Origin: Escherichia phage T4
Sequence record: OL964735.1
DNA length: 64,000 bases
Reading direction: 5' to 3' (one strand)
The stretch's first letter is position 1. Every line of letters starts with the position of its first letter. Position numbers and translations under genes: made by a program. This document shows, one piece after another, positions 16,889 to 61,615 of the stretch. Under the pieces are notes generated by a model. It was not told the DNA's origin, ran no database searches, and saw nothing but the letters and a program-made list of their open reading frames with translations.

Positions 16889-16918
16889 TCATTATACCAC
16901 GTTTTAACGTGAAGCATT
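16889..16918 (-). promoter_or_regulatory. middle (MotA-dependent) promoter for uvsY
   Basis: minus strand TGCTTCA MotA box, 13-nt spacer, TATAAT -10; about 50 nt upstream of uvsY ATG. Confidence 0.65.
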
Positions 16919-17315
16919 ATACTCTATTACTGGAAGCCAGCTGCAGTTTTATCTGCTCAATATCATCAGGATTATCGATGACCGAAAAGCGTATTTCTAC
17001 TATCAGAGTATAATCGTCATAAACGGGTATCACATTAACTGCTAATTTATCAATACGTGGCTCATAGTTTCTTACTGCGCTTTCGATATTGCGTTCAACC
17101 GTGTCAGCAGTAAGAGGAGTCATATTTTCAAAAAGCTGGTCTGATAAATCACATCCAAATTCAGGGTCAAACGGTCTTGAACCTTTTCTTGTTGTAATAA
17201 TTCCCAAAAGACTGTTTTTAATTGACCTTAATCCAAGCGATCTGGAAACGTCTTTGTTCCAATCCATTTTCATTTCCGGGTCAATATCAGAATAAAGCTT
17301 ATTAATATTTGCCAT
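16917..17315 (-). CDS. 25: baseplate wedge protein (T4 gp25)
   Basis: 132-aa ORF, recognised sequence. Confidence 0.93.
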   Translation of the reverse strand: MANINKLYSDIDPEMKMDWNKDVSRSLGLRSIKNSLLGIITTRKGSRPFDPEFGCDLSDQLFENMTPLTADTVERNIESAVRNYEPRIDKLAVNVIPVYDDYTLIVEIRFSVIDNPDDIEQIKLQLASSNRV

Positions 17316-17941
17316 TATAGTAACTCAAAGAACTCTTTGAGGCCTCTTATTACGTGAGCATGGGTTTTTCCACACTCTGGACACTTAATTGGAACAGCCA
17401 AATAAACGGTAGGCTTTAAAAGCATATCTTTTATAGCTACAATATCTGACTCTGTGATGATAGAATATAAATCTTCTAGTTCCTTTTCATTTAAGTCTTC
17501 AACTGGAATGCTTTCCCCGTTAGCATGAATCGTTTCTATACATGATACTATCATGTGGGCTATATTTTTATCATCAAAAATTTTAGGGTATCGGAATTTA
17601 ATTTTAATGTCACCTAGTGTATACCAGAGGTCTTCTGGTGCATCTATTTGTGTATGTAATAGATTTATATGGGTTGGTATTTCAGTTCCACAGGTGCACT
17701 TCCAGGAGTTTTCGTGATTAACTTCACCGAGAGAATGTGCCCATAAATGAATCAACAATAGTTCTGATTCTTGGCGGTTTAAATCTTTTGCATTTGTGCA
17801 GTCTTTGATTAGCTTTTTAACAATTACTTCTACGGAACCATTATTTTTGGCAGTAATAAGTTCTAGATATTCTTTAAGCGTGAATGCGCGACAATTGATT
17901 ATTTTAGAACCAACTCTCACATCAAATTTGTATTCATACAT
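17315..17941 (-). CDS. 26: baseplate hub protein (T4 gp26)
   Basis: 208-aa ORF; stop overlaps gene 25 start. Confidence 0.9.
17316..17347 (-). promoter_or_regulatory. structured translation initiation region of gene 25 (hairpin between SD and AUG)
   Basis: minus strand GAGG is about 27 nt from the AUG, with a 7-bp hairpin CTCAAAG-AGTT-CTTTGAG in between. Confidence 0.6.
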
Positions 17942-17962: not shown

Positions 17963-17970
17963 TATTTATA
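17963..17970 (-). promoter_or_regulatory. late promoter TATAAATA for gene 26
   Basis: part of palindrome TATTTATAAATA at 17963-17974. Confidence 0.6.
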
Positions 17971-17974
17971 AATA
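17967..17974 (+). promoter_or_regulatory. late promoter TATAAATA for gene 51
   Basis: part of palindrome TATTTATAAATA; 17 nt upstream of gene 51 ATG. Confidence 0.65.
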
Positions 17975-60900: not shown

Positions 60901-61036
60901 CTCTGTAGGTATTGGTGCTCATACCCACACGGTAGCAATTGGATCACATGGTCATACTATCACTGTAAATAGTACAGGTAATACAGAAAACACGGTTAAA
61001 AACATTGCTTTTAACTATATCGTTCGTTTAGCATAA
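57956..61036 (+). CDS. 37: long tail fibre distal subunit, receptor-binding (T4 gp37)
   Basis: 1026-aa ORF; C-terminal HxH repeat region. Confidence 0.96.
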
Positions 61037-61063
61037 GGAGAGGGGCTTCGGCCCCTTCTAAAT
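61036..61063 (+). promoter_or_regulatory. structured translation initiation region of gene 38 (hairpin between SD and AUG)
   Basis: AAGGAG at 61036-61041 is 22 nt from ATG 61064; AGGGGC-TTCG-GCCCCT hairpin at 61041-61056 lies between. Confidence 0.6.
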
Positions 61064-61615
61064 ATGAAAATATATCATTATTATTTTGACACTAAAGAAT
61101 TTTACAAAGAAGAAAATTACAAACCGGTTAAAGGCCTCGGTCTTCCTGCTCATTCAACAATTAAAAAACCTTTAGAACCTAAAGAAGGATACGCGGTTGT
61201 ATTTGATGAACGTACTCAGGATTGGATTTATGAAGAAGACCATCGCGGAAAACGCGCATGGACTTTTAATAAAGAAGAAATTTTTATAAGTGACATTGGA
61301 AGCCCGGTTGGTATAACTTTCGATGAGCCCGGCGAATTTGATATATGGACTGATGACGGTTGGAAAGAAGACGAAACATATAAGCGAGTTTTAATTCGTA
61401 ATAGAAAAATTGAAGAATTATATAAAGAGTTCCAAGTTTTAAATAATATGATTGAAGCTTCTGTCGCCAATAAAAAGGAAAAATTCTATTATAAAAACCT
61501 TAAGCGGTTCTTTGCTCTTTTAGAAAAGCATGAGCATTTAGGTGGTGAATTCCCTTCATGGCCTGAAAAAGAACAGAAGCCTTGGTATAAGCGTTTATTC
61601 AAGCATTACGTATAA
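61064..61615 (+). CDS. 38: tail fibre assembly chaperone / adhesin (T4 gp38)
   Basis: 183-aa ORF. Confidence 0.93.
   Translation: MKIYHYYFDTKEFYKEENYKPVKGLGLPAHSTIKKPLEPKEGYAVVFDERTQDWIYEEDHRGKRAWTFNKEEIFISDIGSPVGITFDEPGEFDIWTDDGWKEDETYKRVLIRNRKIEELYKEFQVLNNMIEASVANKKEKFYYKNLKRFFALLEKHEHLGGEFPSWPEKEQKPWYKRLFKHYV

Follow-up and report, generated by a model that had tools for sequence, protein, structure and literature searches.

The element at the junction of genes 26 and 25 is, we are highly confident, the split (noncontiguous) translation initiation region of phage T4 gene 25, which was shown experimentally in 1999 and 2009. In this region a strong Shine-Dalgarno (SD) sequence, too far from the gene 25 AUG in the linear sequence, is separated from it by a hairpin. 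The site is already known and is the type example in the type phage. It lies on the minus strand of a 64,000-nt stretch of Escherichia phage T4 DNA (sequence record OL964735.1), hereafter called the window. A sequence search with a 1,061-nt stretch spanning genes 26-25 gave 100% identity to Escherichia phage T4, and the same query matched approximately 500 Tequatrovirus-like records at an identity of at least 90%. In the T4 record, uvsY is located downstream of gene 25, and genes 51, 27 and 28 are on the opposite strand in divergent orientation; this gene order (uvsY-25-26 / 51-27), together with the sequence identity, identifies the locus as the published T4 gene 26-25 junction.

The features of the locus are as follows, all coordinates being those of the window.

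16917..17315, minus strand: gene 25, encoding a baseplate wedge subunit of 132 aa; the gene whose initiation is controlled.
17315..17941, minus strand: gene 26, encoding the baseplate hub (208 aa), with SD, hairpin and spacer all in its last 11 codons.
17963..17970, minus strand: late-promoter consensus TATAAATA upstream of gene 26, found by motif scan.
17343..17349, minus strand: distal SD UAAGAGG (core GAGG at 17346..17343), in gene 26 codons I198-R199-G200.
17335..17341, minus strand: 5' arm of the hairpin, CUCAAAG, in L201, K202 and the first base of E203 of gene 26.
17331..17334, minus strand: tetraloop AGUU between the hairpin arms.
17324..17330, minus strand: 3' arm of the hairpin, CUUUGAG, in the last base of F204, F205 and E206; it holds the weak proximal GAG.
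17316..17323, minus strand: single-stranded 8-nt spacer UUACUAUA (DNA TTACTATA) from the stem to the AUG, in L207, L208 and the start of the stop codon.
17313..17317, minus strand: UAAUG, composed of the gene 26 stop codon (17317..17315) and the gene 25 ATG (17315..17313), which share one base.

Read along the minus strand, the layout is ...AUAAGAGG C CUCAAAG AGUU CUUUGAG UUACUAUA AUG G.... The initial annotation of this DNA had described, on the minus strand, a GAGG about 27 nt upstream of the gene 25 AUG, a 7-bp hairpin (CTCAAAG-AGTT-CTTTGAG) between the two, and an overlap of the gene 25 start with the gene 26 stop. All three were found: the GAGG is present at 17346-17343, at a distance from the AUG of exactly 27 nt, the hairpin is present at 17341-17324, and the overlap is seen as TAATG. 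The annotation had also regarded the GAGG as the sole SD-like element. Upstream of the AUG no other 4-nt SD core is in fact present, but a pair of weaker GAG triplets lie 17 nt (at the junction of the 5' arm and the loop) and 8 nt (in the 3' arm) upstream. The interval given for the site, 17316-17347, places the elements correctly but ends one base before the AUG. The abstract of the 1999 report is said to list candidate SDs at three distances (8, 17 and 27 nt), the same as those of the three GAG positions found here.

The hairpin has seven base pairs without mismatch and a 4-nt loop; folded in isolation it has an energy of -6.4 kcal/mol, and it sits entirely between the SD and the AUG. When the stem is folded, 1 + 8 = 9 nt remain unpaired between SD and AUG, or 11 nt if the closing pair is counted or open, which leaves a canonical effective spacing of 9-11 nt; in the linear sequence the strong SD UAAGAGG is at a non-functional distance of 27 nt. 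The duplex predicted between the distal site (UAAGAGGC) and the anti-SD has an energy of -5.8 kcal/mol, the best in the upstream region, compared with -2.2 kcal/mol for the proximal GAG. No GAGG, GGAG, AGGA or AAGG was found within 4-13 nt of the gene 25 AUG; that is, this interval holds no adequate canonical SD.

These features are those of the published site. The primary reports (Nivinskas et al. 1999, J Mol Biol 288:291; Malys and Nivinskas 2009, Mol Microbiol 73:1115) are cited here as summarised in a review (PMC3014915). According to the review's account, the hairpin shortens the SD-AUG spacing of gene 25 from 27 to about 11 nt, mutations destabilising the structure reduce initiation, so that the structure enhances translation, and the structure was shown to form, with lacZ fusions and DMS probing as confirmation that the site is split. 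Sequence and phage are the same, and the 27-nt distance, the hairpin and the 26-25 junction all match the review (PMC3014915). There is no difference at the locus; the review gives a spacing of 11 nt, against the 9 unpaired nucleotides counted here, and its value fits our count if the two bases of the closing pair are counted or the outermost C-G pair is open. The statement in the initial annotation that folding of the hairpin would give a functional SD-AUG spacing thus matches the literature on the same T4 sequence, and the synonymous-site, codon-choice and SD-reciprocity tests described below agree with it. Stem disruption, which had been proposed as the check, lowered translation as predicted in the published work, as the review (PMC3014915) relates it. 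The sites of gene 25 and gene 38 have been termed 'noncontiguous or split' in a further article (PMC7297116). The 'gene 25' of PMC9239132 is that of phage Mu and is irrelevant to the T4 site. When 17100-17600 was searched against Rfam, nothing relevant was obtained at E of 1 or less; one unrelated lncRNA model scored 13.8 bits against a gathering score of 40, and no Rfam family covers the gene 25 or the gene 38 split site.

The only TATAAATA on the minus strand near genes 26 and 25 is the one at 17970..17963, and a scan of the minus strand at 17316-17941 showed that the motif is absent inside gene 26; therefore, judging from the promoter motifs, the late mRNA that carries gene 25 appears to be bicistronic (26-25). 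The same scan gave no support to a late promoter inside gene 26, from which a monocistronic gene 25 mRNA would arise, and this possibility was rejected. The 50 nt that separate the divergent genes 26 and 51 contain two TATAAATA motifs in back-to-back overlap, one on the minus strand (17970..17963) and the other on the plus strand (17967-17974); the whole window has 19 such motifs, with 9.3 expected. Gene 26 itself contains an in-frame ATG at 17554..17552 (minus strand, codon 130), which corresponds to the CDS annotated in a T2 record as "gp26' internal in-frame translation initiation"; no obvious SD-like motif was seen in the 30 nt preceding it. In Shigella phage sb4 (PQ666542; locus L071, 20-646) the gene 26 frame is broken by an internal stop and two CDSs are annotated, 20-274 and 407-646, the second of which begins at the gp26' internal ATG. 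Two explanations fit this stop: an error in sequencing, or a naturally occurring nonsense mutation in a phage that retains both gp26' and the split site of gene 25.

The junction was compared in a set of 69 loci, representing 36 distinct junctions and including 9 loci from a metagenome scan and 10 named T-even records. Four states were distinguished.

Split: intact 7-bp stem, distal SD of -5.3 to -7.3 kcal/mol (GAGG, GAGGGG, AAGGGG or AAAGGA), proximal SD of -2.4 kcal/mol or weaker; Tequatrovirus, an NHEP11-like group, Gelderlandvirus, Moonvirus, Kagamiyamavirus, Jiaodavirus, Gaprivervirus and Kanagawavirus.
Dual: intact stem, strong distal SD, strong proximal SD (AAGGUGAU); Dhakavirus and one further lineage (L032).
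Weakened: mismatched stem, weak distal SD, intermediate proximal SD; Karamvirus and the L038 type.
Canonical: no stem, weak distal SD, proximal SD of -6.4 to -10.1 kcal/mol where scored; Acinetobacter phage 133, Proteus phage phiP4-3 and several others.

In these sequences, junctions with an intact stem mostly combine a strong distal SD with a weak proximal one, and those that have lost the stem mostly have a strong SD in the proximal position. This reciprocity is as the split-site model predicts, and it agrees with a survey of 38 T4-related phages, in which, as the review reports it, the close T-even phages have the split arrangement and the distant T4-like phages are without it (PMC3014915). 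Compared with that study, the newer genomes used here place the split arrangement in more genera of the Tevenvirinae. Slopekvirus and Pseudotevenvirus are without the stem and have AAAGGTGG near the AUG, and Tulanevirus is without the stem and has a GGGGG run near the AUG; both motifs were recognised by eye. In the stem-less junctions L030, L043, L047 and L048 no clear strong SD was found at either the distal or the proximal position.

The viruses of the dual state, Dhakavirus (JS98-like and IME341; L026-L031 and L076) and L032, have the same 7-bp hairpin together with a distal GAGGG or AAGGG. Their proximal SD, AAGGUGAU or AAGGUGU, has an energy of -6.4 to -6.9 kcal/mol and begins inside the 3' arm of the stem, and an alternative fold of 9 or 10 bp is predicted in which the distal SD region is paired with GUUCUUU. 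In the record of Citrobacter phage Moon (NC_027331, L082) the gp25 start is annotated at position 350 of the locus, and the 3 nt at 341-343 are marked as a 'ribosome_binding_site'; the homologue of the T4 start ATG lies 48 nt further upstream than the annotated start (302, in a TAATG overlap with gp26). The split site of Moon, which is without a proximal SD, probably misled the start caller.

The tight stop/start junction is also the basis of another explanation, in which termination-reinitiation at UAAUG accounts for most of the translation of gene 25, and neither the hairpin nor the distal GAGG plays a real part. The gene 26 stop and the gene 25 start share one base, the mRNA appears always to be bicistronic given that there is no late-promoter motif inside gene 26, and a TAATG, ATGA or TAAATG junction is kept in most relatives, all of which would suit reinitiation. 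We nevertheless consider this explanation improbable, since mutations destabilising the structure cut initiation and reporter fusions confirm that the split SD is used, as summarised in the review (PMC3014915), and since coupling alone leaves the synonymous freezing of the stem (see below) unexplained. Moreover, most stem-less lineages with a tight stop/start junction have gained a strong proximal SD, which suggests that contact with an SD is still needed and that coupling alone is insufficient. Coupling may well contribute to gene 25 translation, but it is unlikely to be the sole mechanism.

Since the SD, the stem and the spacer are coded by the last 11 codons of gene 26, their conservation alone could be driven by the protein. 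Part of the conservation of the stem is indeed protein-driven, as the stem lies wholly within codons of the peptide motif G-L-K-E-F-F-E/K, which was found across many genera. At the extreme, the hairpin would be a by-product of this conserved C-terminal LKEFFE/K peptide of gp26, and initiation would proceed via the weak GAG located 8 nt upstream of the AUG, which is a canonical spacing. Synonymous sites bear directly on this question. Among 23 distinct T-even gene 26 sequences, including those of T4, T2, T6, RB14, Sf24, phiD1, CrRp10 and NHEP11-like phages, 136 of the 204 degenerate third positions of gene 26 vary. All five such positions of the stem (CTC201, AAA202, TTC204, TTT205 and GAG206) are invariant, and the neighbouring codons outside the stem vary in four cases of four (GGC/GGA200, GAG/GAA203 in the loop, TTA/CTA207 and CTA/TTG208). 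By a simple count that ignores shared ancestry and takes one third as the background invariance, five invariant sites would arise by chance with a probability of 0.33^5, about 0.004. The GAGG is kept in all 23 sequences, even where Arg199 has changed from AGA to CGA.

Codon choice points in the same direction. When the peptide LKEFFE was recoded at random according to the codon usage of 47 long ORFs of the window, a stem of 7/7 Watson-Crick pairs was obtained with P = 0.001, or 0.028 when G-U pairs were allowed. The stem makes use of rare codons: CTC accounts for 6% of Leu codons, GAG for 14% of Glu codons and TTC for 29% of Phe codons. The synonymous freezing and the codon choice together indicate that the pairing is maintained beyond coding need. 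Covariation was assessed over 22 aligned junctions, in which 92.9% of the cells were paired and the shuffle controls were only modestly exceeded. A clean double change was seen at one pair only (pair 3, C-G in T4-like sequences and U-A in other genera), and it is probably a single event; covariation is too weak to stand alone. That the hairpin is merely a by-product of the gp26 peptide is therefore very improbable: the stem requires rare codons under T4 usage, its five synonymous sites are frozen while the neighbours vary, the proximal GAG gives only -2.2 kcal/mol with the anti-SD and is itself inside the stem, and mutagenesis, as summarised in the review (PMC3014915), showed that the structure enhances translation. 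The one further point in favour of a by-product is that the folding z-scores are not significant.

These scores, calculated against dinucleotide shuffles in contexts of 41-141 nt, ranged from -0.3 to -1.4, and folding energy alone cannot establish the gene 25 element. In 64 kb of DNA with 36% GC, the occurrence of a 7-bp hairpin is not by itself notable. In all contexts folded, from 41 to 301 nt, the centroid is the 7-bp stem, and its pairs have probabilities of 0.7-0.99; the least probable of the seven is the outermost C-G pair, at 0.5-0.8 compared with about 0.7-0.99 for the others. The minimum free energy (MFE) structure in the 101- and 141-nt contexts is a competing fold, in which GUAAU is paired with GUUAC, AGAGG with UCUUU and CUC with GAG (17349..17318, minus strand of the window). 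According to this model, the AGAGG:UCUUU pairing would sequester the distal SD; the pair probabilities of the 7-bp hairpin are about 0.8 in both of these contexts. The idea that the hairpin is a negative element, which hides proximal SD-like triplets or alternates with a GAGG-hiding fold and so limits or times gp25 production, draws on this MFE fold and on the overlap of the Dhakavirus-type 3' arm with the strong proximal SD, but it has very little probability, because destabilising the T4 structure lowers rather than raises translation in the review's account (PMC3014915) and the 7-bp stem dominates the ensemble. A second hairpin, GAGUGUGG-AAAAAC-CCAUGCUC, of 8 bp including G-U pairs, is predicted just upstream of the SD at 17377..17356 (minus strand), in the gene 26 codons E-C-G-K-T-H-A-H. 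All MFE and centroid folds computed for at least 101 nt contain it, and this stretch varies among relatives.

The arrangement as a whole is rare in the window. Each of the 2,490 ATGs on the two strands was checked for three features: a GAGG 16-35 nt away, the absence of SD 4-mers from the interval of 4-13 nt, and a stem of 7 bp or more whose folding leaves 4-12 nt; a single ATG passed, that of gene 25. When the criteria were relaxed to accept any SD 4-mer and stems of 6 bp or more, nine ATGs passed. Seven of the nine head ORFs of 43 aa or less, and the real gene starts among the nine are those of gene 25 and gene 38 (61064), the two published split sites of T4.

The gene 38 site, the nearest analogue of that of gene 25, is situated in the same window, 44 kb away.

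61035-61066, plus strand: gene 38 split site, with AAGGAG at 61035-61040, the hairpin GGGGC-UUCG-GCCCC at 61042-61055, an 8-nt spacer and the AUG at 61064.

The two sites share the principle of a distant SD bridged by a hairpin; at gene 38 the spacing is shortened from 22 to 5 nt (Gold 1988, cited in PMC3014915 and PMC7297116; the spacing is that given in the review PMC3014915). The gene 38 hairpin is intergenic and GC-rich, has a UUCG tetraloop and is far more stable, whereas that of gene 25 is AU-rich and lies inside the frame of the upstream gene. The 41-nt context of gene 38 folds with -15.6 kcal/mol (z = -2.75), compared with -7.7 kcal/mol (z = -0.74) for gene 25. At gene 38, a tail fibre assembly gene, the stop codon TAA of gene 37 is at 61034-61036. 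More distant likeness is found in the E. coli rpmE and threonyl-tRNA synthetase mRNAs, whose initiation regions are discussed in PMC7297116 as noncontiguous and as accommodating or exploiting a stem-loop where the ribosome binds. What is shared with gene 25 is a stable stem-loop that is tolerated or positively arranges the initiation elements; as described there, the two E. coli examples are cellular regulatory leaders with autogenous protein binding, and the gene 25 element is in a coding region.

Initiation at gene 25 is best explained as follows. On the 26-25 mRNA, UAAGAGG is the only strong element complementary to the anti-SD and, at 27 nt, is too distant to act linearly. The 18 nt starting one base after the SD, provided by the codons for L-K-E-F-F-E, fold into the 7-bp stem and 4-nt loop. 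The folded hairpin would be looped out between the SD:anti-SD duplex and the P site, so that, as the review (PMC3014915) has it, 16-18 nt are removed, and the effective spacer of about 9-11 nt would allow the 30S subunit to hold the SD and the AUG together and to initiate. We infer this geometry on the ribosome. The hairpin also buries both weak GAG triplets. The structure thus activates rather than represses translation. Ribosomes translating gene 26 would have to melt the hairpin transiently, and the UAAUG overlap would allow some termination-reinitiation. To our knowledge, the gene 25 element has no known protein ligand.

An extension of this picture is that the hairpin could gate the share of gene 25 initiation that is independent of, as opposed to coupled to, translation of gene 26, and thereby tune the gp26:gp25 stoichiometry; the LKEFF(E/K) palindrome may also predate the split arrangement and serve for more than shortening the spacer. 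This is suggested by the Dhakavirus/L032 hairpin, which partly occludes a strong proximal SD, and by the alternative T4 fold, which can hide the GAGG. We regard the extension as speculative and rather unlikely. If it were true, the T-even state would be one end-point of a series of SD relocations that could be traced genus by genus.

What is new here is the synonymous-site and codon-choice tests and the wider survey at genus level; otherwise the analysis adds no new biology to the split initiation region of gene 25. Split sites have a practical consequence for annotation, since start-codon callers that require a nearby SD can misplace starts at them. The gene 25 site is a classic case of mRNA secondary structure that, within a bacterial initiation region, activates translation by looping out an over-long SD-AUG spacer instead of obstructing the ribosome.
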